In this document: piece after piece, positions 34,300 to 53,636 of the stretch
Numbering within the stretch: the stretch's first letter is position 1
How the letters are laid out: each line of letters starts with the position of its first letter
Assembly (NCBI GenBank): GCA_035536715.1
Contig: DATLNO010000077.1
Coordinates: 9,221 to 73,220, forward strand
Origin: Solirubrobacteraceae bacterium
GTDB taxonomy: Bacteria; Actinomycetota; Thermoleophilia; Solirubrobacterales; Solirubrobacteraceae
Direction of reading: 5' to 3'
Length of the DNA stretch: 64,000 bases
The notes under the pieces: model-generated
Databases searched by the model: none
What the model saw: the letters and a program-made list of their open reading frames with translations, nothing else
Told to the model about the DNA's origin: nothing
Made by a program: the position numbers and the translations under genes

Positions 34300-35223
34300 A
34301 TGCGGACCGGTGTGATCGTCCCCGTCCACGGCTGGCCCTCGCTGCTGGCCGAGACGCTCGACGGGATCCTCGCGCAGGACCCGCGGCCCGAGGTCGTGCT
34401 CGTCGTCGACGACGGGTCGACCGAGCCGGTCGCGCTGCTTCCCGACCACACGGGGCACTGCCGTGTCGTCCGCCACCCCGAGCGCCGCGGCCTGGCGTAC
34501 GCGCGTGCGACGGGTCTGGCGCAGCTCGAGGGCTGCGAGCTCGTCGCCTTCTGCGACGCAGATGACGTCTGGGAACCCGGCAAGCACGCTGCGCAGCTCG
34601 CGGCGCTCGCCGCTCATCCGAGGGCGGCGGCCTGCTTTGGCAGCGCGTCGATCGTCGGCCTCGACGGGCGCCCGACGGGTGAGCAGTGGGACGAGCTCGC
34701 GGCGGGCTGCCATACGGCGGACGCGCTTTTGCCGCTGCTCTACGAGCGCAACCCGCTCTGCGTCTCCAGCGTGCTGCTGCGGCGCGACGCGGTGGTCGAG
34801 GCAGGCGGTCTCGAGTTCGAGCTGCCGCGCGCCGAGGACTGGGATCTCTGGCTGCGCCTGCTCGCGCTTGGCCACGCGTTCGTGGTGGAGCCGGCCGCCA
34901 GGGTCCGCTACCGCCGCTCTCCGGGCGCGCTGTCGGGCGACATCGCCGGGCTCGCGAGCGCGCAGCTGCACGTGCACGCGGCGCATGCCGGGCTCGTCGA
35001 CGAGGTCGTCCGCCGCCGCGTCGAGGCCGCCGATCGCGTGGCGCATGCGCGTGGGCTCGTGCGCCGGCGCGAGTACGACGCGGCGCGTGAGGAGCTGCAG
35101 CGCGCGTTCGAGCTGCGCCCGCCCGATCGGAGCGAGCGCGCTCTTGCGGCGCTGCTGGCCGTCCCGGGGCTGCGGTCGGCGCTCGGTCGCCGCGATCCGT
35201 ACTCGGCGGGCGCGCGTCCCTAG
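34300..35223 (+). CDS. glycosyltransferase family 2 protein
   Basis: GVIVPVHGWPSLLAETLDGILAQD...VVDDGSTEP...FCDADD (GT-A, DxD). ATG at 34300. Confidence 0.75.
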   Translation: MRTGVIVPVHGWPSLLAETLDGILAQDPRPEVVLVVDDGSTEPVALLPDHTGHCRVVRHPERRGLAYARATGLAQLEGCELVAFCDADDVWEPGKHAAQLAALAAHPRAAACFGSASIVGLDGRPTGEQWDELAAGCHTADALLPLLYERNPLCVSSVLLRRDAVVEAGGLEFELPRAEDWDLWLRLLALGHAFVVEPAARVRYRRSPGALSGDIAGLASAQLHVHAAHAGLVDEVVRRRVEAADRVAHARGLVRRREYDAAREELQRAFELRPPDRSERALAALLAVPGLRSALGRRDPYSAGARP

Positions 35224-37283
35224 ATCGCGGCGGGCGGCACGAGCACGCGCAGGCGCTCGGTCAGCGAGATCGTGCGCCAGCCGGCGTTGATCGCCCACTG
35301 CTGCGCCGGGGTGTTCTGGCGCGCGATGTCGCTTCTGCCGATGACGAGCACGTCGTAGTCGCCGTGCGACAGCGCCTCGCGAAAGCTCGCCTCGTCGCGG
35401 TACGGCGTGAGGAAGCCGTCGACGAACTCACCGACGAACTCGACCTCGTTGTCGATCCGCGTCCCGAATGCCGGCCACACGGGGGACAGATCGCCGAGCG
35501 ACCAGTACGTGGCGAACTCGAGACCGACGCGCTTGTCGGCCGGCGCCGCACGCAACAGCGCGTTGAGCCCGGGGTCGAAGTGGCTGTAGCGGTCGGCGTT
35601 GATGCGGTCCTGCATGCGATCGGCGAGAGCAAGCCCGACGACTGCCGCCCCGAGCGTGGCGGCGACGAGCACGACGCGGCGCTCGCGCAGGCGCCAGAGC
35701 AGGTACGCGGCGCCTGCGATCGCAGCGAGCGCGACCGTGGTGGCGACGAGGTCACGGCCCACGACTTGGTAGCCGTCGTAGGCGCCGAACAGCACGGCGA
35801 GCGTGAGCAGCGCCTCCAGCGCAAGGCCCGCGAGCGGCCGCACTCGACCCGCGACCCAGGCGAGCGCCGGCAGCGCGAGCATGAGCGCAGGGATCGCGTA
35901 GCGCGTGTTGGCGTGGGCAAGCGACGGGGTATCGCGCAGACCGAGCGCCGTCGCCGGGGTCAGGGTGTAGAGCGCGGCGAGCACCGCCGCGCCGGCGGCG
36001 AGGACAAGGACGCGCGGCTCGGCCGCGCGACGACCGGGCCGCGCGAGCACGACCGCCGCGACGAGCGCGAGAGCGCAGATGACCGGCACGCCGCCGAGCC
36101 CCTCGACGATCTTGATCGCGACCTTTGCGAGCACGTCGGGCTGGCCGGAGTAGTCGGCGATCGAGAATCCGACCTCGTCGCGGATGACGTCGCGCGGGGC
36201 GGAGAAGATCGTCACGCCGAACGGCTTGACGTTGAGCGGGAACACGGGATTGCCCGACTCGGCGAGATTGCGGGCGAGCCACGGCAGCATCCCGAGGAAC
36301 GCGAGGACGCCCACGAGCACGCCATCGCGCAGGACCGGACCCGCGTCGCCGCCGCCCGCCCGTCGCGCGGCCAGCAGCCGCGCCCCGAGCCAGATCGCGA
36401 CGACGACGGGCACCGAGCTGACGCCATACCACTTCGTCCCGGCCGCGATCCCGAGCGCGACGCCGGCGAGCACGAGGTCCGAGCGCAGGTTCGTCCGCGC
36501 ATGGCGCAGGAGGTACAGCACGCCGCAGGCGTACGTCGTCCACATGATCGCGTCGGGCAGGGCGCGCGGAATCGTCACAAAGCCGACGACCGGCAGCGAT
36601 ACGACGGCCGCGGCAGCGATCAGCGACGCCGCGGGCGGCGCGCGCAGCTCGCGCGCGACCGCGAAGGCGGCGACCGCGGTCGTCGCGAGGAAGAACACGC
36701 TCGGCAGGCGGGTGAGGAAGTCGTTGTGCCACGGCAGGATCGTGCTGAGCAGCACGACGTCGCCGTTGTTGGGGTAGTTGCCCTGGGCCAGCAGCGGGAC
36801 GAACTGGTCGATCTTCCACATCGTCCCGTCCTGGATCCAGCGGCCGATCCCCGGCAGGTGAAACGACGTCGGGTCGTCGCCGATGACCTCGTCGCCGCCC
36901 CAGCGGCCGAGGTTGGCGAGCGCGGCCACCGCCGTGAAGCCGCAGGCCAGCGCGGCCATGGCCCTGGAGGCGCGGCTGCTCGGGGGCGACGGTGGCCGCG
37001 GTTCCGGGTCCCCGGCGATGGCCGCGGGTCGGACGAGCGCCGCAAGGCCGACGGCGAGCGCGGCGGCGGCGATCACCGTGCCGCGCGAGAGGACGCCCAG
37101 CATCAGCGGCACGAGGTGCACGCCGATCAGGACGCCCGTGCCGGTCACGACGCTCGCAAGCACGGTCTCGAGCGGGTCGAGATGGCGCAGCCGGCGGCGC
37201 ACGACGAGCGCCGTCGCCACGATGACCGCGGCGAGCATGACGACGAAGAGAGCCGCCCCGGCGAGAAAGTCCTGCAAGGGCAT
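35220..37283 (-). CDS. polytopic membrane protein, GT-C-like (ArnT/PMT-type glycosyltransferase) candidate
   Basis: 687 aa. At least 12 hydrophobic segments are followed by a soluble C-terminal domain of about 130 aa. The family assignment is by architecture only. Confidence 0.5.
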   Translation of the reverse strand: MPLQDFLAGAALFVVMLAAVIVATALVVRRRLRHLDPLETVLASVVTGTGVLIGVHLVPLMLGVLSRGTVIAAAALAVGLAALVRPAAIAGDPEPRPPSPPSSRASRAMAALACGFTAVAALANLGRWGGDEVIGDDPTSFHLPGIGRWIQDGTMWKIDQFVPLLAQGNYPNNGDVVLLSTILPWHNDFLTRLPSVFFLATTAVAAFAVARELRAPPAASLIAAAAVVSLPVVGFVTIPRALPDAIMWTTYACGVLYLLRHARTNLRSDLVLAGVALGIAAGTKWYGVSSVPVVVAIWLGARLLAARRAGGGDAGPVLRDGVLVGVLAFLGMLPWLARNLAESGNPVFPLNVKPFGVTIFSAPRDVIRDEVGFSIADYSGQPDVLAKVAIKIVEGLGGVPVICALALVAAVVLARPGRRAAEPRVLVLAAGAAVLAALYTLTPATALGLRDTPSLAHANTRYAIPALMLALPALAWVAGRVRPLAGLALEALLTLAVLFGAYDGYQVVGRDLVATTVALAAIAGAAYLLWRLRERRVVLVAATLGAAVVGLALADRMQDRINADRYSHFDPGLNALLRAAPADKRVGLEFATYWSLGDLSPVWPAFGTRIDNEVEFVGEFVDGFLTPYRDEASFREALSHGDYDVLVIGRSDIARQNTPAQQWAINAGWRTISLTERLRVLVPPAAI

Positions 37284-37370
37284 CAGTGGCCCGTGAGCCT
37301 AATCCACGCGCAGCGGCCGTCCTCCACATGATTCCGGTGCCCATGAGCGGCGCTGATAGCCTCGCAACCG

Positions 37371-38033
37371 ATGGCGCGATCGACCCTTGCGCGGCTGCGA
37401 GGCAGGCTGCGCCCCCGATCCAAGGGCGATGCCGAGATGGGCTACTGGAACGAGCGTGCGGCGATCGAGGGGGTGCTCGGCAACGGCCACTACGAGCGCG
37501 TCTTCACGGCCCAGTTCGGCCTCGAGACGCGGTTCTTCGACGGCAAGCGCGTGCTCGACGTCGGCTGCGGCCCGCGCGGCAGCCTCGAATGGGCGGCCGG
37601 CGCAGCGCAGCGGGTCGGCCTCGACCCGCTCGTCGACCGCTACCGCGAGCTCGGGATCGACCGCCACGCGATGCGGTACGTCGGCGCGCCCGCCGAGACA
37701 ATCCCGTTCGAGGACGCCTCGTTCGACATCGTCGCGAGCCTCAACTCGCTCGACCATGTCGACGACGTCGAGCGCGCCGTCGCCGAGATCACGCGCGTCG
37801 CGGCACCCGGCGCGACGTGGCTGCTGACCGTCGAGGTCGGGCACGCGCCGACGGCGACGGAGCCGCACTCACTCTCGTGGGACGTCGCCGAGGGCTTCGC
37901 GGGCTGGACGGTGCAGTGGTCGGCGCGCAACGGGCTGCGCGAGGACCACGACATCTACGCGAGCATCGACGAGGACCGGCCGCACACGGGCGACGGGCCG
38001 GGCCTCCTCCGCGCTCGGCTGACGAGGACCTAG
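37371..38033 (+). CDS. class I SAM-dependent methyltransferase
   Basis: VLDVGCGPRGSLEW (motif I) and DIVASLNSLDHV (motif II/III region). Confidence 0.75.
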   Translation: MARSTLARLRGRLRPRSKGDAEMGYWNERAAIEGVLGNGHYERVFTAQFGLETRFFDGKRVLDVGCGPRGSLEWAAGAAQRVGLDPLVDRYRELGIDRHAMRYVGAPAETIPFEDASFDIVASLNSLDHVDDVERAVAEITRVAAPGATWLLTVEVGHAPTATEPHSLSWDVAEGFAGWTVQWSARNGLREDHDIYASIDEDRPHTGDGPGLLRARLTRT

Positions 38034-38081
38034 TGGATCCGTCCGGAACTTCGGCCCGCAGAACTTGCGGACGGATCCACT
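38032..38081 (+). terminator. strong hairpin immediately after the methyltransferase stop (14-bp perfect stem)
   Basis: AGTGGATCCGTCCG (38032-38045) pairs with CGGACGGATCCACT (38068-38081). The 22-nt loop contains GAACTT twice. There is no U-tract. Confidence 0.4.
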
Positions 38082-38133
38082 GGTGAGCCTGACCGCTCGG
38101 TCGTGGCGCGCGGGTCTGCGCCGGTACCCGACA

Positions 38134-40206
38134 ATGCGGTCGATGGACGTCAGGACCGACGACCCTGCGCCGACGGAGCTCGATGAGGAGATCAGCTCCG
38201 GCGAGACCGGCCCGCCCGGTCGCGGCGAGCCTGACGGCGCGGGCGATATGACGCCGGGCGACGGCCCGCCGGGGCTGTCGCAGCGTTCCAACCGGATATG
38301 GGCATGGGTCGCGCTCGCCACCGCGAGCGTGTCCGCGGTCGCGCTGGCGCGGTACACCGGCGTCGTCGGCAAGGGCGGGCTGAACGAGGTCGCGCGCGCC
38401 GGCGCGGCGACCGTCGCGGTGTTCGGCATCGTTGGCTTCGGGCCGACGCGGCTGCTGCTGCCGCCCGGCCTGCGCCGCTTCGAGTTGCTGTGGGTGCTGC
38501 CGGTCGGCGCGGTCGCGACGGCGCTCGAGCTGACGCTCCTGACCTACGCGCACGTGCCATTCGATGCTGCGCTGCCGATCGTCCTGCTCGCCGGCGTGGC
38601 GCTCGCGGGGTTCGGCTGGCGGCGCGACCCGGGACTCCCCACGGCGCGCTCGGCACCGGCGGCCGGATTGGACGGGTTGGACGCGGCGTCATGGCGCACG
38701 CTGCTCGTGCCGCTGTACATCGCGCTGCTGATCGCGATGGTCGCGCTGCTGCCAATGTTCCGCGCGGGCTTTGCGACCGTCATCGGCAACGGCTCGGACG
38801 CGCACCTCGCGGTCGGCACCGGGATGTTCCTGCAGGAGAACCGCGCGGGCACGGTCAACATCGATGCGCCGGTCGACCACGTGCCGCTCGTGTGGAACTC
38901 CAAGCCGCCGATCTACCTCGCCTTCGGGGCCGTGGCGAAGGTCGCCGGGATGGAGCCGTACGCGGTGATCGCGACGATGGCGGGGGTGCTGCTGGCGCTC
39001 GCCGCGCTCGGCTTCTGGCTGCTGGCGCGCGAGCTGCTCGGCGCGGGCGCGTGGGCGGCGGGCGCCGCGATGGCGCTCATCGGCCTGAACCGGATGGCGC
39101 TGTTCACGACGATGCACCCGTACTTCAACCAGATCTGGGCCTTCATGGCGATGCCCTTCGCGATCGTGCTCGCATGGCACGTGGTGCGCCGCGGGACGTT
39201 CGGCGGCTGGATCATGCTGGGGTCGTTTCTCGCCCTGCTCGGGTTCGCCTATCCGCTGGCGCTGCCCGTGCCGCTCATGTCGATCGTCGTCTTCATCGCG
39301 TTCGAGCGCCGCCGGCGCGGGCTGCGGCTCATCTGGCTGCCGCGCCTGCGCAGCCGCAAGGACCTCATCTGGATCGTGCCGCTGGCGCTGCTTTTGCTGT
39401 CGGGCCCCGTCAAGGGCGTCTTCGAGAAGGCCGGCTCCGTGTTGAGCCTGCTCAACTACGGCGGCTCGCTGGCCAACTGGGGCGGCGACCTGCCGGGCTT
39501 CATCCCGGAGCGCTACTTCCTCGGCCTCGGTGACTCGGGCGGTGCGGCGATCGCGCTGGGGCTGCTGCTCGTCGGGCTTGTGATCGGGCTGCGCCACGCG
39601 CCGCGCGACGTGCGCTGGGGCCTGGGCATCGTGCTCGTGTTCGGCGTCCTGGCGGCGCTCTTCTTCCGCCCGCGCGAATACGGCTGGTACTTCCATTTCA
39701 AGGCGCTGGCGTTCGTCGCGCCGATCGGGATCGCGATCGCCGCCGTCGGGCTGGCGCGCTTCAGGCACGCCTGGGTCAGCGCGATCGCGCTGATCCTCGT
39801 GATCGGCGCGGCTCGCACGAGCGCCGCCGACGAGATCGGTCAGACGTTCGATCAGCTGCCCAAGAGCCTGCTCGAGCTGCGCTCGGTGGACGCGAGGCTG
39901 CCGCCCGACGCGTCGGTTCGGCTCGACATCCCGGCTGACGGGCGGATGCTGTGGGCCGGGATCCTGCTCGGCGGCCAGCCGCTGTGCTCGCAGAAGCCGG
40001 TGATGGAGACGAGCTATCCGCACGTTCCTGTCTCACGTGCCGCCGACTACGTGCTCGTCGACGACGACTGGCGCAAGCCGTTCGATGCCGTCGGCGACCC
40101 GGTCATGACACTCGACCGCTACCGGCTGTTCCGCCTCGAGCCGGGGCTGGCGGGTGGCGACCGCTGCTCGCGCGAGATGGTGCAGAACGTGGAGTCGCTG
40201 CAGTGA
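38134..40206 (+). CDS. polytopic membrane protein (second GT-C-like candidate)
   Basis: About 690 aa with an acidic/Pro-rich N-terminus, then at least 13 hydrophobic segments and a C-terminal soluble part. ATG at 38134 was chosen because the track start 38065 lies inside the upstream hairpin. Confidence 0.5.
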   Translation: MRSMDVRTDDPAPTELDEEISSGETGPPGRGEPDGAGDMTPGDGPPGLSQRSNRIWAWVALATASVSAVALARYTGVVGKGGLNEVARAGAATVAVFGIVGFGPTRLLLPPGLRRFELLWVLPVGAVATALELTLLTYAHVPFDAALPIVLLAGVALAGFGWRRDPGLPTARSAPAAGLDGLDAASWRTLLVPLYIALLIAMVALLPMFRAGFATVIGNGSDAHLAVGTGMFLQENRAGTVNIDAPVDHVPLVWNSKPPIYLAFGAVAKVAGMEPYAVIATMAGVLLALAALGFWLLARELLGAGAWAAGAAMALIGLNRMALFTTMHPYFNQIWAFMAMPFAIVLAWHVVRRGTFGGWIMLGSFLALLGFAYPLALPVPLMSIVVFIAFERRRRGLRLIWLPRLRSRKDLIWIVPLALLLLSGPVKGVFEKAGSVLSLLNYGGSLANWGGDLPGFIPERYFLGLGDSGGAAIALGLLLVGLVIGLRHAPRDVRWGLGIVLVFGVLAALFFRPREYGWYFHFKALAFVAPIGIAIAAVGLARFRHAWVSAIALILVIGAARTSAADEIGQTFDQLPKSLLELRSVDARLPPDASVRLDIPADGRMLWAGILLGGQPLCSQKPVMETSYPHVPVSRAADYVLVDDDWRKPFDAVGDPVMTLDRYRLFRLEPGLAGGDRCSREMVQNVESLQ

Positions 40207-40217: not shown

Positions 40218-41477
40218 ATGCTGTTGTGCGCTCTCGCGATGCTGGCCGCTGCTGGCAGCGCGGCGCCGGCGTTCGCGCAGGAGCCGGCGACCGCGTTCGC
40301 CGCGGACTCGACGCAGATCGGCGTCATCAGCCTCCTGTTCTTCGGTGCCCAGGGCGGCGAGGTGCAGTACTACGAGCGCGTCAGTGATCGCCTGAAGGCG
40401 CTCGGCCGGGCGCGCGCCGCCCCAGGCGCGGTGACGACGCTGAAGGACGCCACGACCTGGTCGTGTGATCGCCTCGAGCGCCGCTTCGAGGCGCGCGCCG
40501 TCCTGCCCGACGGCAGCACCGCGACGGGCGCATACGGCGTGCGGACCGCGTCGTGCGCGCAGCGCTTCCGGGTCGAGGCGCCGCGTCGCGTCGCCGCGGG
40601 AAAGCTGGCCCGCGTCCGCGTGATCGACCGCTGGAACATCGGCGGCATCAAGCCGATGCTCTGCATCACGCCGCCGGCGGGCCGGCGGGAGTGCAGGACG
40701 CTGGCCTTCGCGCGGGCAGTCGCCGTCGCGACGCGCCGCTTCCGCGCCGAGCAGCGCGGGCGCTGGCGTGTCGAGCTACGGGTCCGCGATCACCGCGTGC
40801 GGCGCGACGTCGCCGTCGGCGGCGACACGACGGTCAGACAGGTCGTGCTGCCGAGCGTGCTCGCGACCGGAGACTCGACAATGCAGGGCATCGACAGCTA
40901 CCTGTCCGACGAGCTGGCCGACGACGCTGCGCTGCGCAGCGACATCCAGCTCGGCAGCGCGATCAGCCGCGGCGACTTCTGGGCGACGTACGCGGCGACG
41001 CAGACCAAGCGCCTGCACCAGCGCGTCAGCGTGATGTCGATCGGCGCGGCGTTCGACGGCTATCCGCTGACGCCGCCCGGCGGCGCTCCGGTCGAGTGCT
41101 GCGAGGAGCCGTGGGTTGCGCTGTACGCCGAGCGCGTCCGGGCGATCATGGGGACCTACCTGCGGCGCGGGCGCGGGCGCGTGTTCTGGCTGACGCCGCC
41201 GCTGCCTCGCGACCCGGTGCGGCTGAAGATCACGACCGCGATCACGTTGGCGATCGAGCGTGCCGCGACGGGACTTCTGGGCGTGAGGGTCGTCCGCGTC
41301 GACCAGCTCTTCGCGCCGGCAGGGGTCTACACGGAGGTCATCCGCTACCGCGGCCGCGACGTCCGCGTGCGCGATCCCGACGGCGTGCACCTCAACATCT
41401 CGGGCACCGCGATCATGGCCCAGCTGCTGGCCCCGCAGATCCGGGCGGCGCTGGCGCAGACGAAGCCCGCGGGCTGA
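40218..41477 (+). CDS. secreted protein with a C-terminal SGNH/GDSL hydrolase domain
   Basis: Signal peptide MLLCALAMLAAAGSAAPAFA. Block I is VLATGDSTMQG and block V is DPDGVHLN (DxxH). I did not recognise the N-terminal 220 aa or so. Confidence 0.6.
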   Translation: MLLCALAMLAAAGSAAPAFAQEPATAFAADSTQIGVISLLFFGAQGGEVQYYERVSDRLKALGRARAAPGAVTTLKDATTWSCDRLERRFEARAVLPDGSTATGAYGVRTASCAQRFRVEAPRRVAAGKLARVRVIDRWNIGGIKPMLCITPPAGRRECRTLAFARAVAVATRRFRAEQRGRWRVELRVRDHRVRRDVAVGGDTTVRQVVLPSVLATGDSTMQGIDSYLSDELADDAALRSDIQLGSAISRGDFWATYAATQTKRLHQRVSVMSIGAAFDGYPLTPPGGAPVECCEEPWVALYAERVRAIMGTYLRRGRGRVFWLTPPLPRDPVRLKITTAITLAIERAATGLLGVRVVRVDQLFAPAGVYTEVIRYRGRDVRVRDPDGVHLNISGTAIMAQLLAPQIRAALAQTKPAG

Positions 41478-45400: not shown

Positions 45401-48400
45401 CGTCTCGGGCTTCGGGATCAGCGGGACGAACGCGCACGTCGTGCTCGAAGAGGCGCCGGCGGCGGAGTCCCACACCACGGCAGCGGACCTTCCCGCGGTG
45501 CCGCTCATCCTGTCGGCGAAGTCGCGGGGCGCGCTGCGGGAGCAGGCTCGGGCGCTGCACGAGCACATGGTGCGGCGGCCGCAGGTCGTGCCGGCCGACG
45601 TCGGCTGGTCGCTCGCGACCGGGCGTGCGCGCTTCGCGCACCGCGCCGCGGTCGTCGGCACCGACCGCGCGCGGCTGCTCGCGGGCCTCGACGCCGTCGC
45701 GAGTGGGATGCCCGCCGACGGCGTCGCCGCCGGCAACGCCCGCGACGCCGCGAGGGTCGCGTTCGTGTTCCCGGGCCAGGGCTCGCAGTGGCTCGGCATG
45801 GCGCTCGACCTGTGGGACACCGCCGACGCGTTCGGGGCGCAGATGCAGGCTTGTGCCGACGCGCTGCGCCCGCACACCGGCTGGGAGCTGCGCGACGTCA
45901 TCGCGGGAGCGCCCGGGGCACCGGCGCTCGAGCGCATGGACGTCGTCCAGCCGGCGTCGTTTGCCGTGTTCGTCTCGCTCGCCGCGCTGTGGCGCTCCTA
46001 CGGTGTCGAGCCGGCGGTCGTCGTCGGCCACTCGCAGGGCGAGATCGCCGCCGCGTACGTCGCCGGCGCCCTGACATTGCAGGACGCCGCGCGCGTCACG
46101 GCGCTGCGCAGCGCCGCGCTCGTCGACCTCGCCGGCGCGGGCGGGATGATGTCGGTCTTCCTGCCCGCGAGCGAGGTGCTCGAGCGGATCGAGCGCTTCG
46201 ACGGCCGGATCTCGCTGGCCTCCTACAACAGCCCGCGCTCGACGGTCGTCGCGGGCGAGCCGCAGGCGCTGCGCGAGCTGCTCGCGGAGTGCGAGGCCGC
46301 CGGCGCGCGCGCGCGGATGATCGCCGTCGACTACGCGTCGCACTCCCAGCAGATCGAGTCGATCCGCGCGCGCCTGCTCGAGGACCTGCGGCCGATCGCG
46401 CCGGTCAGCACGCAGATCCCGCTCTACTCGACGACGACCGCCGGGCTGATCGACGGCACCCGGCTCGACGCCGAGCACTGGTATCGCAACCTGCGCGAGC
46501 CGGTCCGCTTCGAGCAGGCCACGCGTGCGCTCGTCGACGACGGCGTGACGGCGTTCATCGAATCGAGCCCGCACCCGGTCCTGACGTGGGCCGTGCAGGA
46601 GACCGTCGACGATGCGGCGACCGATGGCGGGCGCGATCGGATCGCCGTCGTCGGCTCGCTGCGCCGCGACGAGGGCACGCTCGCGTGCTTTCTCTCGTCC
46701 GCGGGGGAAGCCTTCGCCGGCGGTGTCGAGGTCGACTGGGAGGCCGCGTTCGCCGGCGCCGGTGCGCGCCGCGTCGGCCTGCCGACCTACCCCTTCCAGC
46801 GCACCCGCTTCTGGTTCGAGCAGCGCGCGGGAGCAGGCGGGGGAGACGGGTCGCTCGCTGCGGCCGGCATCGGCGCGGCCGAGCACCCGCTGCTCGGCGC
46901 GGCGGTCGAGCTCGCCGGCGGCGACGGCTGCCTGCTGACCGGCCGCATCGCCTCGTCCGGCCATTCCTGGCTCAACGATCACGAGCTGTTCGAGCAGGTC
47001 ACGCTCGCGCAGTCGGCCTTCGCCGAGATGGCGCTGCGAGCGGGCGCCGAGGTTGGCTGCGACACCGTGGAGCAGCTGACCCTGGAGGCGCCGCTCGTGC
47101 TGCCCGCGGTGGGCGGCGTGCGGCTGCAGGTGACCGTGAGCGGCGCGGACGACAGCGGCCGCCGGACGCTCGCGATGCACGCCCGGCCCGACGCGGACGG
47201 ACTGGCCGACGCCGCCTGGGTGCGCCACGCGACGGGCACGCTCAGCGAGGCCGCGACCGCCGACCACGAACCGCTGCCCGCGCAGTGGCCGCCTTCCGGT
47301 GCGGTCGCGCTCGACCTCGACGAGCTCTACGACCGCCTCGCCGCCAACGGGCGCACGTACGGCGCGGAGCTCCAGGTGGTGCGCGCCTGGCGGCTCGGCG
47401 ACGAGCTGTTCAGCGAGGTCGGGCTTTCCGAGAAGGAGCTCGTCGACGGGGCGCGCTTCGCGATCCACCCGGTGCTCCTCGACGCGGCGCTGCATCCGGC
47501 GATCGCGGCGCGCGACCCGGCGAGTGTCTCGCCGGCGCTCGAGTGCAACGGCCTGCGCGTGCAGCAGCCCGGCACGCTCGCGCTGCGTGTGCGTCTCTCG
47601 CCCGGGGAAGGCGACACCCTGCGGTTGACGGCGACGGACGAGCGCGGGGCGCTCGCCCTGACCATCGACGCCGTCGCCATGGCGCCGCCGCAGGACGGCC
47701 GCGCGGCAGCCGGTCGCGACGCGGCCCTCGAGGCGCTCTACCGCATCCGCTGGACGCCGCTCGCCGCGTCCGCCTCCTCGAGCGGCGGCGCGACGGCGCA
47801 GCTCGACGCCGTCGACATCGTCGCCCCACGGACCGTCACCGAGGCGCTCGCGCTCGTGCAGGGCTGGCTCGTCGAGGACCGTCCGCCGGACGCTCGCCTC
47901 GCCGTGCTCGTGCCCGGCGCGGGCGCGGTACTCGACGGCGAGTCGCCCGACCCCGAGGCGTCGGCGATCCGCGGCCTGCTGCGCAGCGTGCAGTCCGAGC
48001 ATCCTGACCGCGTCGTCACGCTCGACGTACACGAGGCCAGTCCCCGGGAGATCGCCGCCGCGGTCGCGACGGGCGCGGCCGAGGTCGCGCTGCGCGATGG
48101 CGCGGTCCTCGTGCGCCGGCTCGCGCGCGCGCCTGCCGACACGGCGCCATCCGGCACCTGGCGGCTCGCGCCCGAGCGCGCCGGTGCGCTCGTCGCGGCG
48201 GCGCCCGACCACGGCGACGGCGACCGTCCGCTGCGCAGCGGCGAGGTGCGGTTGGCCGTCCGCGCCGCCGGCGTGAACTTCCGCGACGTGCTGATCGCGA
48301 TCGGCGTCCACGGGGCTCAGCTCGGCGCCGAGGCCGCCGGCGTCATCGCGGAGGTCGGGCCCGACGTGGACCGCCTGCGTCCCGGCGATCGCGTCATGGG

Positions 48401-51137
48401 GATCGTCCCCGGCGCCTTCGGTCCGCTGGCCGTCGCCGACGCCCGCACGCTCGTTCCGATCCCCGCCGAGTGGTCGTTCGCGCAGGCGGCCACCGTCCCG
48501 GTCGCCCACGCCACGGCATACCTCGCGCTGCACGACATCGCGCGGCTGCAGCCGGGGGAGCGCGTGCTGATCCACGCCGCCGCGGGCGGCGTCGGGATGG
48601 CCGCCGTCGCGCTCGCTCAGCGGACCGGAGCGGAGGTCTTCGCGACGGCGAGCCCGGCGAAGTGGGACGCGCTTGGAGCGCTCGGGATCGACGGCGAGCA
48701 TCTCGCCAGCTCGCGCACGACGGACTTCGCCGCGAAGTTCGAGCGGGTCGACGTCGTCCTGAACTGCCTGACGGGCGAGCTGACCGATGCCTCGCTCGCG
48801 ATCCTGGCGCACGGTGGGCGCTTCGTCGAGCTTGGCAGCGCCGACGTTCGGGATCCCGCGGCGATCGCCGCCGCATTCCCTGGCGCGACGTACGAGACCG
48901 TCGACCTCTTCGGCACGAAGCCGAAATCGCTCGGCAAGATCCTGCGTGCGGCCGCCGCGCAGGCCCAGCCGCTGCCGATCACGGCCTGGGACGTGCGCGA
49001 CGGCTCACAGGCGCTGGCGTTCATGAGCCAGGCCCGCCACATCGGCAAGGTCGTGCTGACCGTGCCGCACGCGCTCAATCCCGAGGGGACGGTGCTCGTC
49101 ACCGGTGCAACGGGCGGCCTCGGCGCCGTCGTCGCCGAGCACCTCGCGCGCGAGCACGGCGCCCGCCGCCTGCTGCTTGTCAGCCGCCGCGGTCCGGACG
49201 CGCCGGGGGTCGACTCCCTGTGCGAGCGCCTGGGTCAGCTCGGCTGCGAGGCAACCGTCGTCGCCTGCGACGTCGGAGACCGCGCCGCGCTCGCCGCGCT
49301 GCTCGAGACGATCGACACGGGCAACCCGCTGACGGCGATCGTCCACGCCGCGGGAACGCTCGACAACGGCATGGTCGAGTCGATCGACGAGGCGCGCCTT
49401 GCTGGCGTCATGCGCCCGAAGGCGACCGCCGCTCGCTGGCTCGACGAGCTCACGCGCGGCGAGGACCTCGCGGCGTTCGTGCTGTTCTCGTCGGTAGCGG
49501 CGACGTTCAGTCACCCCGGTCAGGGCAACTACGCCGCCGCAAACGCCTACCTCGACGCGCTTGCCCAGCAGCGCCGCACCAATGGGTTGCCCGCGACCGC
49601 TGTCGCCTGGGGACTGTGGGGCACGGGCAGCGGGATGTCGACGCGCCTGAGCAAGGAGGACATCGAGGTGCTGGCGGCCGACACGGGTCAGCGCGAGTTG
49701 CCCGTCGCGCAGGCGCTGGCGCTGCTCGACGTCGCCATCGGCCATCGTGAGGCGCTGCTCGTCGCCACGACGCTCGACCACGCATCGCTGCGCGCGCAGG
49801 CGCGGTCGGGCGTGCTGCCGGCGCTGCTGAGCGACCTCGTGCGCGCAACCAAGCGGACCACGGCCCGCGGGGGCGCTGCTGCTCGCGCGGGCGCGACCGG
49901 CGGCTCGCTGGCACAGCAGCTCGCCGCTGCCGCACCGCAGCAGCGCGACGAGCTCGTGCTCGAGCTCGTCCGCGCCCAGGCCGCCGCCGTGCTCGGTCAC
50001 GCGTCGGGAGGCGACGTGCCGCCCGACCGCCCGTTCAAGGAGCTCGGCTTCGACTCGCTCGGGTCGGTCGTGCTGCGCAACCGCCTCGGGCAGATCACCG
50101 GCCTGCGCCTGCCGTCGACGCTTGTCTTCGATCACCCGACGCCGCTGGCGATGGCGGCCTTCATGCGCGCGCTGGCCGAGCAGGACGAGCACGCCCAGGA
50201 GGGCGCGCAACCCACGGCGCCGGTCACCGTGCCGGCTTCCGAGCCGCTCCCCGCGATCGGGATGGCGCTGCTCGCCGAGCCGATCCGCCAGGAGGTCGCG
50301 CCGAGCGCCAACGGCCACGGCCCGCACGCGTCGTTGCCGGCCGGTGCGGCGCACGACGGGTCCCACGTCGCCGTAGGCGGCTACCGTGGCGCCGTGCTCA
50401 GCTCACTCGCCGGCGCCGTGCGGACCCTGCGCTTGCGCGCCTGGATCCTGGCGACGCGGGCACGCCTTGCGCGGCTGGGTTGCACGTTCGTCGTCGAGAT
50501 CGACGGGACGCCGCGCTTCGACGAGCTGCCGCGGATCGTGACCGACGCCGTCGGCGCGGGCGGCGGCTCGCTGACGATCAGGATCGGTCGTGGGTGCCGC
50601 TTCGGCCGCGGGCTGACGCTCGACCTCTGGACGCACGCCGACAGTGTCCTGGAGATCGGCGACCGCTGCCAGTTCCAGGACCGCATTCGCCTGCAGCCGT
50701 GGGGCGGCGCGATCCGCTTCGGCGCGCAGGTGCGCGTGCGCGACGGCGCCGAGCTGAAGTCCAAGGGCGAGCTGCTCGTCGGCGCCGACTCGTTCATCGG
50801 GCGCAACACGGCCGTGCACTGCCACGAGCGCATCGAGTTCGCCGATCACGTGAACCTCGCCGAGGGCGTGAACGTCATGGACTCCGACCACACGCACGAC
50901 GGCAGCGATACGTACGTCGCGCGTCAGAAGATCGTGTCGGCGCCGGTCGTGGTGCAGAGCAACGTCTTCGTCGGGACCAACGCGCTGATCCTGCGCGGCT
51001 CCCACGTCGGGCGCAACGTGATGATCGCGACCGGCGCGGTGCTCACGGGCGGCGAGTATCCGGAGTGCTATCTGCTGGCGGGGGCGCCGGCGCAGCCGCT
51101 GCGGCCGCTGGAGCCCGACGACCCCATACCGTCCTGA
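42459..51137 (+). CDS. type I polyketide synthase: AT-ACP loading didomain + KS-AT-DH-ER-KR-ACP + C-terminal hexapeptide-repeat acyltransferase domain
   Basis: Single open frame of 2892 aa. The motifs are listed under the domain features below. ATG at 42459 was chosen rather than track start 41973, whose first 162 codons overlap the PPTase gene. Confidence 0.9.
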   Translation: MRQRTVALPWVLSAQDEPALREQATRLKAHLEAHPQLHTADVGWSLVAGGAHLERRAVAIGEDRKALLGGLEAIASGAPAQGVARGIAHATTAHRLAFVFPGQGSQWPGMALELAAQSPLFAARLQACEDALSPHIDWKLDDVLRAAPDDELWDRSDIVQPSLFCVMVSLATLWRSFGVRPDAVVGHSLGEISAACVAGILSLEDAARVAALTSRALHELGGDDGMVLVDLGAEQLEERTAQIDGRLTLAAFNGPHAIVVSGEQPALDELLAGCEADGIRARRIRVDGTSSVAHSSQIEAIRERLARDLAPVEPRPSGVTFYSSVTGEPIDYTELGPEYWYRSLREPVRFEQATAALVRDGATAFVESSPHPVLTFAVEGTIESAAAAGTGLATPIGDVPHAVIGSLRRDGGLARFLVSVGEAHATGIELDWTPAFAAARPTRIDLPLRETASAAVADVPVAAAADSLLADDQRTDAGLLALVREHAAAVLALGSADAIAPRRAFKEMGMESLQGVELRNRLAQVTGLRLPSTLVYDHPTPAAVADRLATILSGAQRASRATVRLSAHHDEPIAIVGMSCRYPGGVRSAQDLWDLVAAGTDAIGPFPEDRGWDLDGLYDEDPDVTGTSYVRSGGFLYDAPDFDAAFFQIAPREASVMDPQQRIVLETSWAALEDAAIDPERLAGSAAGVFLGVSSQDYGSFLPGFATEYEGLRMTGSLTSVVSGRVSYALGLEGPGVTVDTACSSSLVALHLACQSLRTGECSLALAGGVTVLSSPGMFIEFSRQRGLAPDGRSKAFAASADGASWAEGAGVLVIERLSDARRNGHRVLGLVRGTATNQDGASNGLSAPSGPSQEQVIRQALANAGVSPADVDAVEAHGTGTTLGDPIEAGALLATYGQDRVDGPLWLGSIKSNIGHSHAAAGVAGVIKMLMAMRAGVLPRTLHVDAPTPHADWSGGRVELLTEQRDWPRAGHPVRPRRAGVSGFGISGTNAHVVLEEAPAAESHTTAADLPAVPLILSAKSRGALREQARALHEHMVRRPQVVPADVGWSLATGRARFAHRAAVVGTDRARLLAGLDAVASGMPADGVAAGNARDAARVAFVFPGQGSQWLGMALDLWDTADAFGAQMQACADALRPHTGWELRDVIAGAPGAPALERMDVVQPASFAVFVSLAALWRSYGVEPAVVVGHSQGEIAAAYVAGALTLQDAARVTALRSAALVDLAGAGGMMSVFLPASEVLERIERFDGRISLASYNSPRSTVVAGEPQALRELLAECEAAGARARMIAVDYASHSQQIESIRARLLEDLRPIAPVSTQIPLYSTTTAGLIDGTRLDAEHWYRNLREPVRFEQATRALVDDGVTAFIESSPHPVLTWAVQETVDDAATDGGRDRIAVVGSLRRDEGTLACFLSSAGEAFAGGVEVDWEAAFAGAGARRVGLPTYPFQRTRFWFEQRAGAGGGDGSLAAAGIGAAEHPLLGAAVELAGGDGCLLTGRIASSGHSWLNDHELFEQVTLAQSAFAEMALRAGAEVGCDTVEQLTLEAPLVLPAVGGVRLQVTVSGADDSGRRTLAMHARPDADGLADAAWVRHATGTLSEAATADHEPLPAQWPPSGAVALDLDELYDRLAANGRTYGAELQVVRAWRLGDELFSEVGLSEKELVDGARFAIHPVLLDAALHPAIAARDPASVSPALECNGLRVQQPGTLALRVRLSPGEGDTLRLTATDERGALALTIDAVAMAPPQDGRAAAGRDAALEALYRIRWTPLAASASSSGGATAQLDAVDIVAPRTVTEALALVQGWLVEDRPPDARLAVLVPGAGAVLDGESPDPEASAIRGLLRSVQSEHPDRVVTLDVHEASPREIAAAVATGAAEVALRDGAVLVRRLARAPADTAPSGTWRLAPERAGALVAAAPDHGDGDRPLRSGEVRLAVRAAGVNFRDVLIAIGVHGAQLGAEAAGVIAEVGPDVDRLRPGDRVMGIVPGAFGPLAVADARTLVPIPAEWSFAQAATVPVAHATAYLALHDIARLQPGERVLIHAAAGGVGMAAVALAQRTGAEVFATASPAKWDALGALGIDGEHLASSRTTDFAAKFERVDVVLNCLTGELTDASLAILAHGGRFVELGSADVRDPAAIAAAFPGATYETVDLFGTKPKSLGKILRAAAAQAQPLPITAWDVRDGSQALAFMSQARHIGKVVLTVPHALNPEGTVLVTGATGGLGAVVAEHLAREHGARRLLLVSRRGPDAPGVDSLCERLGQLGCEATVVACDVGDRAALAALLETIDTGNPLTAIVHAAGTLDNGMVESIDEARLAGVMRPKATAARWLDELTRGEDLAAFVLFSSVAATFSHPGQGNYAAANAYLDALAQQRRTNGLPATAVAWGLWGTGSGMSTRLSKEDIEVLAADTGQRELPVAQALALLDVAIGHREALLVATTLDHASLRAQARSGVLPALLSDLVRATKRTTARGGAAARAGATGGSLAQQLAAAAPQQRDELVLELVRAQAAAVLGHASGGDVPPDRPFKELGFDSLGSVVLRNRLGQITGLRLPSTLVFDHPTPLAMAAFMRALAEQDEHAQEGAQPTAPVTVPASEPLPAIGMALLAEPIRQEVAPSANGHGPHASLPAGAAHDGSHVAVGGYRGAVLSSLAGAVRTLRLRAWILATRARLARLGCTFVVEIDGTPRFDELPRIVTDAVGAGGGSLTIRIGRGCRFGRGLTLDLWTHADSVLEIGDRCQFQDRIRLQPWGGAIRFGAQVRVRDGAELKSKGELLVGADSFIGRNTAVHCHERIEFADHVNLAEGVNVMDSDHTHDGSDTYVARQKIVSAPVVVQSNVFVGTNALILRGSHVGRNVMIATGAVLTGGEYPECYLLAGAPAQPLRPLEPDDPIPS
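42744..43610 (+). other. PKS domain: loading acyltransferase (AT1)
   Basis: FVFPGQGSQWPGM, and GHSLGE (Ser codon about 43020). The specificity position reads SVAHS rather than HAFH or YASH. It is preceded by a KS-AT-linker-like segment of about 95 aa but no KS. Confidence 0.75.
43890..44115 (+). other. PKS domain: ACP1
   Basis: FKEMGMESLQGVELRNRL (Ser codon 43991-43993). Confidence 0.7.
44166..45455 (+). other. PKS domain: ketosynthase
   Basis: PIAIVGMSCRYPGG, DTACSSS (Cys codon 44684-44686), EAHGTGT, and NIGHS. It ends at GTNAHVVLEEAP. Confidence 0.85.
45755..46610 (+). other. PKS domain: extender acyltransferase (AT2), methylmalonyl-type signature
   Basis: FVFPGQGSQWLGM, GHSQGE, and VDYASHS (YASH motif). 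Confidence 0.8.
46880..47690 (+). other. PKS domain: dehydratase (divergent active-site motif)
   Basis: HPLLG start, then WLNDHELFEQVTLAQSAF where the consensus is HxxxGxxxxP. The His is kept; the Gly and Pro are replaced. Confidence 0.6.
48155..49070 (+). other. PKS domain: enoylreductase
   Basis: VRAAGVNFRDVLIAIG and HAAAGGVGMAAVALAQ (NADPH site). Confidence 0.8.
49085..49650 (+). other. PKS domain: ketoreductase (catalytic subdomain)
   Basis: GTVLVTGATGGLG, LDN at the LDD position, and GQGNYAAANAYLD. The structural psi-KR region lies at about 47700-48150. Confidence 0.8.
49950..50175 (+). other. PKS domain: ACP2
   Basis: FKELGFDSLGSVVLRNRL (Ser codon 50055-50057). Confidence 0.75.
50385..51134 (+). 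other. PKS C-terminal domain: left-handed beta-helix (hexapeptide-repeat) O-acyltransferase-like, in the place of a TE
   Basis: IGDRCQFQDRIRLQP.., VGADSFIGRNTAVHCHERIEFADHVNLAEGVNVMDSDHTHD, PVVVQSNVFVGTNALILRGSHVGRNVMIATGAVLTGG, LLAGAPAQPL. This is the LacA/WcaF/NodL-type pattern with a candidate catalytic His in SDHTH. Confidence 0.6.
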
Positions 51138-52107
51138 CCGGGGTCAGCAGCGGTGGCGGCCCGCCCGGCAGCCCCAGGCCGCCGAGGATCCCGCGCACCT
51201 CGCGCGGGTCCTCGCGGCGGGCGAGGCACAGCGCCGCGCCGGCGAGCGCGTCGGCGAGCAGCGCGACGGTGAGCCCGGCCCGCTGCGGCCGGCTCCAATG
51301 CAGCGCCGCGTAGCGGCGCAGCGACGCGACCCACTCGGCCCGCATCCGCGCCGGGTCGGCGCGCTGGGCGCGACCGACGCTCGTCCCGTAGCCGTGTGCT
51401 GCGGTCGCGGCGGGCACGATCTCGATGCCGCGGCCGGCGTCGGTCAGGCGGCGACAGAGGTCGCCGTCGTTGAAGAACAGCGCAAAGCGCTCGTCCAGCG
51501 GACGCGGCTGCAGATCACTGCGCCGCGCCATGATGCAGGCCGCGGCCGGGCAGAACACGGCGACGGGGTCGCTCGGCGGGCCGCCGGCCCAGAGGTCCTC
51601 GTAGCGGCGCGTCGCCGCCGCGCGGCCGCCGCGCAGCGCCGCGTCGGCGCGCCGGCCCACGGTCGTGTAGGCCCACAGCACCCCGGCGAGGCCGATGTCG
51701 CGGCGCGCGTGCAACTGCGGCGTGCCGTCGGGATCGTGCAGCAGCGCGGCGGCGATCGCGACCTGCGGCCGCGTGGCGAGGTGGTCGCGCAGCGCGCGGG
51801 CGCAGCCGGCGTCCATCACGCAGTCGGGGTTGAGGAGCAGCACGTGCTCGCCGGCCGAGGCGTCGAACGCCGCGTTGACCGCTGCGGCGAAGCCCGTGTT
51901 GGAGCCCATCTGCAGCAGCTGCACGCCGTCGGCCGCCCGCGCCGCGACGCGCGCGACGGTGTCGTCGCGTGACGCGTTGTCGGCGACGGTCACGTCCACC
52001 GTCAGATCCTCGCCGGCCTGCGCCAGGGCCGCGTCGAGGCACGCTGCGATCTCGTCGCCGTGCTCGTAGGTGACGATCAGGACCGATAAGCCGGGTGCGC
52101 TGGGCAC
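51043..52107 (-). CDS. glycosyltransferase family 2 protein (rhamnosyltransferase-like)
   Basis: LSVLIVTYEHGDEIAACLDA..., ADNASRDDT, NTGFAAAVNA and LLLNPDCV. GTG start. Its 3' end overlaps the PKS 3' end by 95 nt (convergent). Confidence 0.75.
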   Translation of the reverse strand: MPSAPGLSVLIVTYEHGDEIAACLDAALAQAGEDLTVDVTVADNASRDDTVARVAARAADGVQLLQMGSNTGFAAAVNAAFDASAGEHVLLLNPDCVMDAGCARALRDHLATRPQVAIAAALLHDPDGTPQLHARRDIGLAGVLWAYTTVGRRADAALRGGRAAATRRYEDLWAGGPPSDPVAVFCPAAACIMARRSDLQPRPLDERFALFFNDGDLCRRLTDAGRGIEIVPAATAAHGYGTSVGRAQRADPARMRAEWVASLRRYAALHWSRPQRAGLTVALLADALAGAALCLARREDPREVRGILGGLGLPGGPPPLLTPVRTVWGRRAPAAAAAAPAPPPADSTPDTRRP

Positions 52108-52158
52108 GGCCTCACCCTACGGAGCCGCGGCGATCTGCCGATCGCTGCCGTCCGCGGC

Positions 52159-52184
52159 GGCGGCGACCCCGCAGGGTCGCCGCC
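52159..52184 (-). terminator. GC-rich hairpin downstream of the 52197..52826 gene
   Basis: GGCGGCGACCC (52159-52169), CGCA loop, GGGTCGCCGCC (52174-52184): an 11-bp perfect stem with no clear U-tract. Confidence 0.35.
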
Positions 52185-52196
52185 CCGGACATCCTG

Positions 52197-52826
52197 CTAC
52201 GGAGTGTTGGTCAGCGTGATGCCACCGATGGGCGTCGCGATGATCGACGACTCCGATAGGCGGAAGCTCGTGCCCGCGCTGCATTCGAGGAAGAACTCCG
52301 ATGGCGTGGCGACGGTGCGGGTGCTCTGCATGAACAGCGTCGCCGGTGCCGTCTTGCTGCTGACGACGACGTTCTGCAGTGACTCCGTGGCGTCGCCCGC
52401 GAGGTCGAGCCGGCAGCGGCCCTCGGGGCTGCTGCGCTCCGGAAGCAGCGGGTTCTGCGCCGCTGGCAGCGCGGTCATGACGGTCGACGCGGTCACCGCG
52501 TAGGCGCCCGGCGGGACCGTCAGCGACAGGACCCTCGCCGCGATGTTCGGAGGCTGGCCCTCGGGGCCCGCCTTGCGGGCACCGTGATAGACGGTGGCGG
52601 CCCCGCCACCGCCCGAGGCGGTCTTCAGCTTGTCCGCCGTGATGGTGCCGTTCTTGATGTCCCTGCCCTGGAGCGAGCCATCCTTGATGTCGGCAGAAAG
52701 GATGATGTTGTTCTTGATCTGCTTGCTCGACGTGATCATCGTCGCCGCGTATGCGGTCCCGGCAAGGGCCGCGAAGAGCGCGATGCCCGAGATGACGAGT
52801 GCTGGGCTGGGCCGTCGAAGCTTCAT
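52197..52826 (-). CDS. hypothetical secreted/anchored protein
   Basis: RBS GGGGAGAA, then signal/anchor MKLRRPSPALVISGIALFAALAGTAYA and a short repeated motif IKDGSLQGRDIKNGTITADKLK. It is visibly less GC-rich than its neighbours. Confidence 0.5.
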   Translation of the reverse strand: MKLRRPSPALVISGIALFAALAGTAYAATMITSSKQIKNNIILSADIKDGSLQGRDIKNGTITADKLKTASGGGGAATVYHGARKAGPEGQPPNIAARVLSLTVPPGAYAVTASTVMTALPAAQNPLLPERSSPEGRCRLDLAGDATESLQNVVVSSKTAPATLFMQSTRTVATPSEFFLECSAGTSFRLSESSIIATPIGGITLTNTP

Positions 52827-52925
52827 GAGGTTTCTCCCCTGATGTTTGGATGCCGGTCTTCCGTTGACCGGACCTTAGTCTTCCTGCTGCTGAGAAGGAA
52901 CACGCGGCCCGGGCGAGAGCTTCGC

Positions 52926-53636
52926 TCAAGCCTTTGTGCAGAAGTGCACGACTTCCTCCTCGAGCACGCCGTAACGCCGCGTCGTCTCGGGCCCGAGCCG
53001 CTCGGCGTAACGATCCAGCCGCACCTCGAAGCCGGCCTCGCGCAGCCGGTCGGCGTAGTCCGGGCCGTACGCGCGGACATGATCGCGCTGCGCGAAGCGG
53101 CGCAGGCGCTCCTCGGGATCGGTCAGCGTCGGGTCCTCGTCGGTGCGCTCGAGCAGGATCGGCACCTGCAGGATCGCCCAGCCCGTCGGTCGCAGCACGC
53201 GGCACAGCTCGCGCATCGCGCGCCGGTCGTCGGGCACGTGCTCGAACACGTGGCTGCAGTAGATGACGTCGAAGGAGTCAGCCGGGAAGTCGATCGCCGT
53301 GATGTCCATCTGGACATCGGCGAGGCCCGGCTCGAGGTCGGCGCTCAGGTAGTCGATGAGCGGCTCGCCGACCAGCCGCTCATGCAGGGCGGGCTCGGGC
53401 GCGATGTGCAGCATCCGCTTGCGCTCGGTTGCGGTGAAGAGGTCGGTCTCGTCGCGCAGGTAGAGCCAGATCAGGCGGTGGCGCTCGAGCGACTCGCAGT
53501 GCGGGCACTGCGCGTTGGGGCGCTTGATGGTGCCGCCGCCGAACGGGCGAAACCGGCGCGCCGTCTTCTCGCAGAGCGGGCAGAGCACGCGCGTGAACAC
53601 GGTGCGAGGGTAGATGCATTCGTGCACCGCCGTCAC
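52926..53636 (-). CDS. class I SAM-dependent methyltransferase with an N-terminal Cys4 zinc-ribbon
   Basis: CPLC...CPHC ribbon, then HIAPEP..., SFDVIYCSHVFEHV and LRPTGWAILQVP. GTG start at about 53627-53636. Confidence 0.7.
   Translation of the reverse strand: MTAVHECIYPRTVFTRVLCPLCEKTARRFRPFGGGTIKRPNAQCPHCESLERHRLIWLYLRDETDLFTATERKRMLHIAPEPALHERLVGEPLIDYLSADLEPGLADVQMDITAIDFPADSFDVIYCSHVFEHVPDDRRAMRELCRVLRPTGWAILQVPILLERTDEDPTLTDPEERLRRFAQRDHVRAYGPDYADRLREAGFEVRLDRYAERLGPETTRRYGVLEEEVVHFCTKA

Follow-up and report, generated by a model that had tools for sequence, protein, structure and literature searches.

The 64,000-nucleotide window analysed here (positions 9,221 to 73,220 of contig DATLNO010000077.1, forward strand, assembly GCA_035536715.1 of a Solirubrobacteraceae bacterium) encodes a type I polyketide synthase (PKS) of 2892 aa (42459-51137, + strand; assigned by Pfam domains) that ends in a left-handed beta-helix (LbH) domain of about 250 aa, where a thioesterase or another known release domain is expected. 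The synthase is proposed to serve the cytoplasmic O-acylation of an envelope glycoconjugate precursor, which would then be handled outside the membrane by GT-C-like enzymes and an exported SGNH protein, a reading given a probability of roughly 0.4. The proposal draws on: (i) the modular character of the synthase, (ii) the resemblance of the LbH domain to sugar O-acetyltransferases and its exchange for free-standing homologs at the same chromosomal slots of related genomes, and (iii) the company of the acyltransferase, as its neighbours, namely a core glycosyltransferase of family GT2, a paralog of GT-C type and a core gene resembling GT-C, together with the travelling exported SGNH protein, point to an acceptor among the envelope glycoconjugates.

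The source assembly (genome G000 of the comparison) consists of 314 contigs, with a completeness of 93%. Synteny was compared in 24 congeners and in 16 genomes of other families of the same order; about 60 loci were retrieved (numbered with G for genomes and L for loci) and aligned by tblastn with default statistics. Genes were called by frame analysis of the GC content at third codon positions (GC3) and by listing of open reading frames.

The domain order of the PKS, from Pfam matches and direct reading of the sequence, is AT-ACP-KS-AT-DH-ER-KR-ACP-linker-LbH (acyltransferase, acyl carrier protein, ketosynthase, dehydratase, enoylreductase and ketoreductase), with active-site motifs DTACSSS, GHSQGE, YASH and LGFDSLGS. 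With KS, AT, ACP and DH/ER/KR in one chain and a loading module ahead of them, the enzyme has the make-up of a modular cis-AT type I PKS. Compared with established AT motifs, the extender AT (YASH) is of the methylmalonyl type, and the loading AT is without the Arg that binds the malonyl carboxylate. Against the lasalocid module Lsd14 the KS-AT region reaches 1050 bits, and against DEBS modules about 1000 bits, versus 605 bits against mycocerosic acid synthase (MAS). A deeper branch of the PKS-LbH proteins (L061, 944-11012; L063, 443-11117) has a KSQ-AT-ACP loader, in which DTGQSSS replaces DTACSSS; KSQ is a classical modular loader that yields acetate or propionate. Modular KS-AT, an AT-ACP loader and the KSQ loaders of relatives thus speak for a single round of extension without iteration, ending in a short acyl-ACP with a 2-methyl branch. 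The balance tips slightly towards a short-chain product, and by its sequence relations a short 2-methyl-branched acyl group appears more likely than a long mycocerosate-like lipid.

A long chain belongs to a reading that builds on the glycolipid proposal of the earlier note on this DNA, made from its letters alone: an iterative, MAS-like PKS would form a long, multi-methyl-branched chain that the LbH domain esterifies to a sugar, giving an envelope glycolipid elaborated by the glycosyltransferases and methyltransferases. The set KS-AT-DH-ER-KR-ACP with a methylmalonyl-type AT is indeed that of MAS, the 605-bit match to MAS is strong, and LpxA and LpxD, LbH enzymes to which the domain has distant matches (E of 5e-3 and 1e-5), handle long acyl-ACPs. 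The reading is unlikely, however, because KS-AT is far closer to non-iterative assembly-line modules, a loading didomain and KSQ loaders typify modular PKSs with C2-C4 starter units, and the LbH domain aligns best with short-acyl sugar O-acetyltransferases rather than with LpxA or LpxD. The block likewise holds none of the expected partners: no FAAL, PapA or MmpL family match occurs among the called genes at 33.7-55.2 kb, in agreement with the earlier note, which had seen no MmpL- or PapA-type genes.

The LbH domain occupies roughly 50380-51137. Its family matches are led by WbbJ (2.3e-13), WcaF (3.3e-11) and maltose O-acetyltransferase (8.5e-10), with scores far under the family cut-offs (WbbJ 50 bits versus 243; WcaF 43 versus 192); Hexapep reaches 21.9 bits for a cut-off of 27, and the assignment is clear for the LbH superfamily and stops short of the subfamily level. 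A DSDH motif of the domain is aligned by HMMER with the catalytic-His motif, TATH, of the maltose O-acetyltransferase 3hjj, and is kept in free-standing LbH relatives. An N-terminal extension of about 60 aa is also common to these 250-aa relatives. The domain probably passes the PKS product to a carbohydrate hydroxyl. The same domain read as an N-acyltransferase of the PglD, LpxD or DapD type, joining the polyketide acyl group in amide linkage to an amino sugar or an amine, would account for the matches to DapD, NeuD/PglB-family and LpxD models at 1e-5 to 1e-9 and for those to DapD structures; the best family matches being O-acetyltransferases (WbbJ, WcaF and the maltose enzyme), and the region around the catalytic His of the last aligning as it does, this role is improbable.

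A collection of 5.8 billion proteins holds only 27 fused homologs, all of one lineage and 55-100% identical in the C-terminal part, and a profile-free scan of 1.8 billion representatives gave 52 clusters at E<1e-30, mostly free-standing proteins of about 250 aa. Literature searches turned up neither a characterised PKS of bacteria that ends in LbH nor any work on Solirubrobacteraceae envelope lipids; searches for the relatives returned no culture, lipid data or papers.

Within the genus, the two forms of LbH exclude one another. The fused form occurs in 10 of 25 congeneric genomes and the free-standing 250-aa homolog in the other 15, with no genome carrying both. Free and fused forms are 36-43% identical and fall on opposite sides of a single split in the LbH tree (support 93/99). 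Two chromosomal slots are shared between them. In G019 and G017, the PKS cassette is flanked by two FKBP genes on one side and a conserved block on the other, the position of the free LbH gene in G014 and G024. In the PKS-less G003, the free LbH gene sits in the window-type slot, beside the membrane protein gene memb2, and the gene order is that of the window (GNAT-GT2a-MTa-memb2-[free LbH]-exported protein-MTb-DUF2804-CN hydrolase). As the two slots are filled by either fused or free LbH, one in place of the other, a single conserved acceptor with a changed acyl donor is suggested. A stronger form of this idea, in which the free LbH and the PKS-fused LbH are interchangeable cassettes that switch an envelope glycan ester from a simple to a polyketide acyl group, is offered only tentatively; if true, it would be the first modular PKS whose chain is released by an LbH domain straight onto a sugar precursor of the envelope.

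The glycosyltransferase beside the fusion is GT2b (51043-52107, - strand; GT-A/GT2 fold, PF00535 E=1.5e-17), a single-copy gene in 21 of 24 congeners. It adjoins the LbH end in all 15 distinct PKS-LbH loci, mostly in convergent orientation and co-directionally in L061 and L063, and in the window its 3' end overlaps that of the PKS antisense by 95 nt (51043-51137). The PKSs of L061 and L063 are 3355-3508 aa long, with GT2b downstream. GT2b itself has about 354 aa when convergent and about 325-335 aa where it is co-directional or the genome is without a PKS; thus, a C-terminal extension accompanies the overlap with the PKS. In 11 PKS-less genomes, GT2b is found between a gene for a Wzx-type flippase (Polysacc_synt_3, 5e-34) and the GT-C gene g08', near a GT4 gene and two methyltransferase genes. 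In PKS-bearing genomes GT2b is gone from this locus, and Wzx adjoins g08' (contig C3 of G000, G001 and G019). On contig C3 of the source genome (L043, 1500-13300), g08', the Wzx flippase, GT4 and methyltransferase genes remain without GT2b. Because the ancestral neighbour of GT2b is a Wzx-type flippase that is still encoded on contig C3, export need not be missing from the system. In 24 of 25 genomes, GT2b and the g08 family either both occur or are both lacking.

Two large membrane proteins are also encoded in the block. The first, g08 (35220-37283, - strand; 687 aa), is a GT-C-like polytopic protein of the PMT_2/ArnT type that scores above cut-off with PMT_2 (29.3 bits for 26.1) and with PMT (28 bits); its hydropathy profile suggests about 12-14 helices and a C-terminal part of about 130 aa. 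A second copy in the source genome, g08' beside the Wzx gene on contig C3, is 67% identical to g08. The PKS-linked copies, which occur only in PKS-bearing genomes, form one clade (99% SH-aLRT) nested within the Wzx-linked copies. The second protein, memb2 (38134-40206, + strand; 690 aa), has about 12-13 predicted helices and a C-terminal part of about 125 aa, and gave no Pfam, NCBIfam or PDB sequence match; PDB sequence searches with g08 and GT2b returned nothing useful either. More than 407 homologs of memb2 exist; every one is labelled 'hypothetical', has no Pfam domain and comes from Solirubrobacteraceae/Thermoleophilia metagenomes. An AlphaFold2 (AF2) model built on 24 homologs (pLDDT 70, pTM 0.72) matches STT3 (1.4e-4), PglB (1.4e-3) and ArnT in Foldseek at a probability of 0.99-1.0, with TM-scores of only 0.35-0.39; transporters are matched at a probability below 0.11. 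Four acidic residues are invariant (D219, D245, D449 and E456). Both proteins are GT-C-like, g08 by its sequence matches and memb2 by its predicted fold, rather than the unrelated transporters that the earlier note had named as the outcome that would undo its envelope proposal. The memb2 gene is single-copy in 22 of 24 congeners; it lies beside an LbH gene, fused or free, in the window clade, G017 and G003, and at another locus in G019 and in most PKS-less genomes.

The PKS start overlaps the stop of a phosphopantetheinyl transferase (PPTase) gene (ATGA), an arrangement of translational coupling. This PPTase (41833-42462, + strand) is of the Sfp/PptT type (4PPT_N 3.2e-23, ACPS 2.1e-13) and closest to PptT/Npt (170-180 bits). 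It is found in 8 of 10 PKS-bearing genomes, the two misses being fragmented assemblies, and the 15 PKS-less congeners hold only one divergent and one fragmentary match. In either chromosomal slot, the gene immediately upstream of the PPTase encodes the exported DUF459/SGNH protein (40218-41477, + strand; PF04311 E=4.4e-22); this gene is missing in G007. Membership of DUF459 is well supported (78.9 bits for a cut-off of 27.2). The protein has a Sec signal (...AFA|Q), intact GDS and DGVH motifs (a Ser-Asp-His triad), an N-terminal domain of about 200 aa with no assigned family, and a weak match to the peptidoglycan O-acetyltransferase PatB (5.7e-6); it is a putative esterase or transacylase. The family has five copies in the source genome and up to six per genome across the genus. 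The four other DUF459/SGNH paralogs of the source genome form two adjacent pairs, on contigs C293 (3328-5873) and C273 (506-2815).

In G001 and G015, an island of 14-20 kb parts the DUF459 gene from the PPTase (G001 L013, 3950-17866; G015 L041+L017, 17932-38020). The island is a selenocysteine/glycine-reductase module with SelB, SelA, a SelD-like protein, the GrdB selenoprotein and a major facilitator superfamily transporter. It was considered as a source of extra biosynthetic genes and rejected, as it encodes SelB, SelA and GrdB.

The block is a mosaic and not one conserved cluster. Its mobile core is DUF459, PPTase, PKS-LbH and GT2b, and its recruited members are the g08 paralog and memb2. 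GT2a, the methyltransferase MTa, the 209-aa exported protein and the methyltransferase MTb are residents of the slot and not PKS-dependent, as the gene order of G003 is kept without a PKS. The earlier note had proposed that the block as a whole is a putative envelope glycolipid cluster around the PKS, with its co-occurrence in relatives as the check. Conserved co-occurrence with the PKS holds for DUF459, PPTase, GT2b and g08. It does not hold for GT2a, MTa, memb2, the exported protein and MTb, which stay in the PKS-less G003; memb2 and GT2b are moreover genus-wide, and the island splits the block in two relatives. The tie between the PKS and envelope glycosylation genes itself is borne out by the GT-C-like membrane proteins and by the partial co-occurrence across relatives.

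This mosaic bears on a rival view, in which PPTase and PKS-LbH would stand alone as a self-contained unit of secondary metabolism and produce a small ester (for example an acylated sugar, polyol or other alcohol) with no envelope role, the glycosyltransferase genes being neighbours by descent. PPTase alone is strictly PKS-specific, 14-20 kb of unrelated DNA can part the left block from the PKS, GT2a, MTa, memb2 and MTb persist without it, and acetyltransferases of the maltose and galactoside types use free sugars. All of this would fit a self-contained unit; yet the adjacency of GT2b outlasts an inversion and two different slots (15 of 15 loci), GT2b left the Wzx/GT-C locus only in PKS-bearing genomes, a clade of GT-C paralogs is found only beside the PKS, and the exported SGNH protein travels with the cassette. 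A small ester without an envelope role is therefore considered rather unlikely, and acylation of an envelope glycoconjugate precursor is preferred.

Several observations weigh against acylation of an envelope glycoconjugate precursor. The adjacency of GT2b and LbH may stem from one ancestral rearrangement and be inherited by descent, and the adjacency of DUF459 is weaker evidence because the family is multicopy. The AF2 model of GT2b (pLDDT 78) has only generic GT-A matches in Foldseek, which are non-diagnostic. The free LbH gene has no glycan genes adjacent to it in G024, G014 and G008, where its neighbours encode FKBP isomerases, threonine synthase, LigD and a response regulator, and thus the acceptor is not identifiable from neighbours in these genomes. 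G024, a single contig at 97% completeness, retains GT2a, memb2 and the free LbH and is without GT2b and the g08 family, so the LbH acceptor is not strictly dependent on that pair. With regard to the enzyme itself, the trimers of LbH enzymes and the dimers of PKS modules do not obviously fit together in a fusion; the DH motif is without its canonical Gly and Pro; and a longer chain, from a module that works iteratively, stays conceivable from the sequence. All of the genomes compared are metagenome-assembled genomes of uncultured Solirubrobacteraceae/Thermoleophilia, which also counts on this side. As regards GT2b, assignment as either a polyprenyl-phosphate sugar synthase or a WbbL-like enzyme was tried and set aside, since the generic matches of the model do not discriminate between them. 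Its homologs are named WbbL-type rhamnosyltransferase by JGI automatic annotation only, and GT2b falls short of the WbbL family level (TIGR01556, 18 bits for a cut-off of 200). In G024, GT2b and the g08-family GT-C were apparently lost together.

In the proposed mechanism, the two ACPs would be activated by the PPTase. The loading AT-ACP would accept a short monocarboxylic starter (the KSQ loader of relatives giving acetate or propionate), and the single module would add and reduce one methylmalonate unit to form a 2-methyl-branched acyl-S-ACP, for example 2-methylbutanoyl or 2-methylpentanoyl. The fused LbH domain would move this acyl group from the ACP directly to a sugar hydroxyl on the cytoplasmic side of the membrane, the acceptor being a nucleotide- or polyprenyl-linked envelope glycoconjugate precursor made with the neighbouring GT2 enzymes. 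After flipping, for which a Wzx gene is present at the ancestral locus of GT2b, GT-C-like enzymes may put the sugar on its final acceptor, and the exported SGNH protein may trim or relocate the ester. In sister species, the free LbH at the same slots would presumably add a simple acyl group to the same acceptor, such that the PKS fusion would represent a swap of acyl donor.

If this scheme is true, ACP-to-sugar transfer by a fused left-handed beta-helix domain would be a new route of PKS chain release, and bacteria would be seen to diversify their cell-surface chemistry when a conserved decoration step exchanges one acyl donor for another. The scheme would also give a first functional handle on memb2 and the 250-aa LbH family, both of which are abundant and unannotated in Solirubrobacteraceae metagenomes, and on the poorly known envelope of Thermoleophilia. 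The sister genomes with fused and free LbH provide a natural comparative experiment.

The remaining genes of the block are the slot residents. Eleven genes were counted at 34.2-53.6 kb, ten of which are itemised here, and all are real by GC3 frame bias; every gene listed in the earlier note was recovered at, or within a few codons of, the place given there. GT2a (34237-35223, + strand) encodes a GT2 glycosyltransferase with no transmembrane helix (PF00535 E=4.1e-19), and its first ATG lies 63 nt upstream of the start at 34300 given previously. The best PDB sequence match of GT2a is PglI, a PP-undecaprenol-oligosaccharide glucosyltransferase (1.5e-8), and orthologs of at least 70% identity are found in nine congeners, including the PKS-less G003 and G024. 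With two GT2 genes in 19 kb, such genes are about ten times as dense here as in the genome overall, a rough estimate based on about 40 GT2-like candidates in 3.5 Mb. MTa (37371-38033, + strand) is a class I S-adenosylmethionine (SAM) methyltransferase (Methyltransf_11 E=1.5e-16) with a counterpart at the matching place in PKS-less G003. The exported protein (52197-52826, - strand; 209 aa, with a signal peptide) has no Pfam or NCBIfam match; it occurs in window-type PKS loci and, as fragments, in G003, and is not in the G017 and G019 cassettes. MTb (52926-53636, - strand) is a SAM methyltransferase (Methyltransf_11 5.1e-14) with an N-terminal Cys4 zinc ribbon (CPLC...CPHC), present in G006, L052, L057 and G003 and absent from G001, G015, G007 and L055. 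The DUF2804 gene that follows (53633-54133, - strand) has only its C-terminal half in frame (PF10974 positions 190-339, E=2.5e-20) and looks truncated or frameshifted; relatives likewise match only the C-terminal part. Upstream of the block, a multicopper oxidase gene and a cupredoxin-domain gene (26956-28955, - strand) belong to a copper-protein island unrelated to the PKS. The window has a GC content of 72%, and a promoter and terminator scan of the locus was uninformative, with no promoters found and terminators at chance level.

The systems closest in outward appearance are the mycobacterial loci for phenolic glycolipids and dimycocerosates (PGL/DIM), sulfolipid-1, di- and polyacyltrehaloses (DAT/PAT) and lipooligosaccharides (LOS). 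Similarly to these, the locus described here groups glycosyltransferase and methyltransferase genes around a reducing type I PKS whose AT is of the methylmalonyl type, and its presumed product is an acyl ester on an envelope sugar. By contrast, the mycobacterial synthases are iterative, MAS-like and FAAL-primed, with off-loading by PapA enzymes of the condensation fold or a Pks13-type thioesterase and export by MmpL, whereas the enzyme of the window has a modular KS-AT, AT-ACP loading (KSQ in relatives) and a fused LbH for off-loading. The analogy to mycobacterial polyketide-acylated glycolipids drawn in the earlier note thus survives only at the level of a PKS acyl group on an envelope sugar; its long-chain lipid part is made less likely by the KS-AT scores, the KSQ loader of relatives and the nearness of the LbH to short-acyl O-acetyltransferases.

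The glycosyltransferases invite comparison to the two-step GT2 and GT-C systems (ArnC/ArnT, Ppm1/Pmt and GtrB/GtrC) and to Wzx glycan clusters, as GT2b and the g08 family are neighbours beside Wzx in the 11 PKS-less genomes; unlike the enzymes of those systems, GT2b has no specific similarity to polyprenyl-phosphate sugar synthases and matches no named family at the NCBIfam cut-off. Extracytoplasmic O-acetylation systems of the PatA/PatB and OatA types likewise link an exported SGNH protein with an intact Ser-Asp-His triad to acylation, but the protein here is of family DUF459 and has no MBOAT or AT3 membrane partner. An LbH at or close to the C-terminus has also been noted in a eukaryote, where multidomain PKS transcripts of the dinoflagellate Karenia brevis carry such regions, described as unusual and given no function (PMC5725682); the likeness is one of description.

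For chain transfer, the diketide synthase LovF and the acyltransferase LovD of lovastatin biosynthesis offer a parallel in which a single-module reducing PKS passes a short, 2-methyl-branched acyl group from its ACP directly to an acceptor hydroxyl, with no hydrolysis. This system is fungal, LovD is a separate protein with an alpha/beta-hydrolase fold, SAM donates the methyl group and a polyketide alcohol serves as acceptor, whereas here the LbH is fused, the methyl group would come from methylmalonate and the acceptor is presumably a sugar. The maltose and galactoside O-acetyltransferases, WcaF, WbbJ and NodL are the best family and structure matches of the C-terminal domain, and their catalytic His region aligns with it; they are free-standing proteins of about 180-200 aa that use acetyl-CoA, in contrast to the ACP-fused domain of the PKS. 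A precedent for an LbH enzyme that moves an acyl group from a carrier protein to a sugar is provided by LpxA and LpxD (PMC6408518). These two enzymes differ in that they are distant in sequence, their ACP is free and their acyl group is a 3-hydroxy fatty acid from type II fatty acid synthase. LovF/LovD, LpxA/LpxD and WcaF/WbbJ/NodL are nearer mechanistic analogues of the PKS-LbH enzyme than the mycobacterial systems are.

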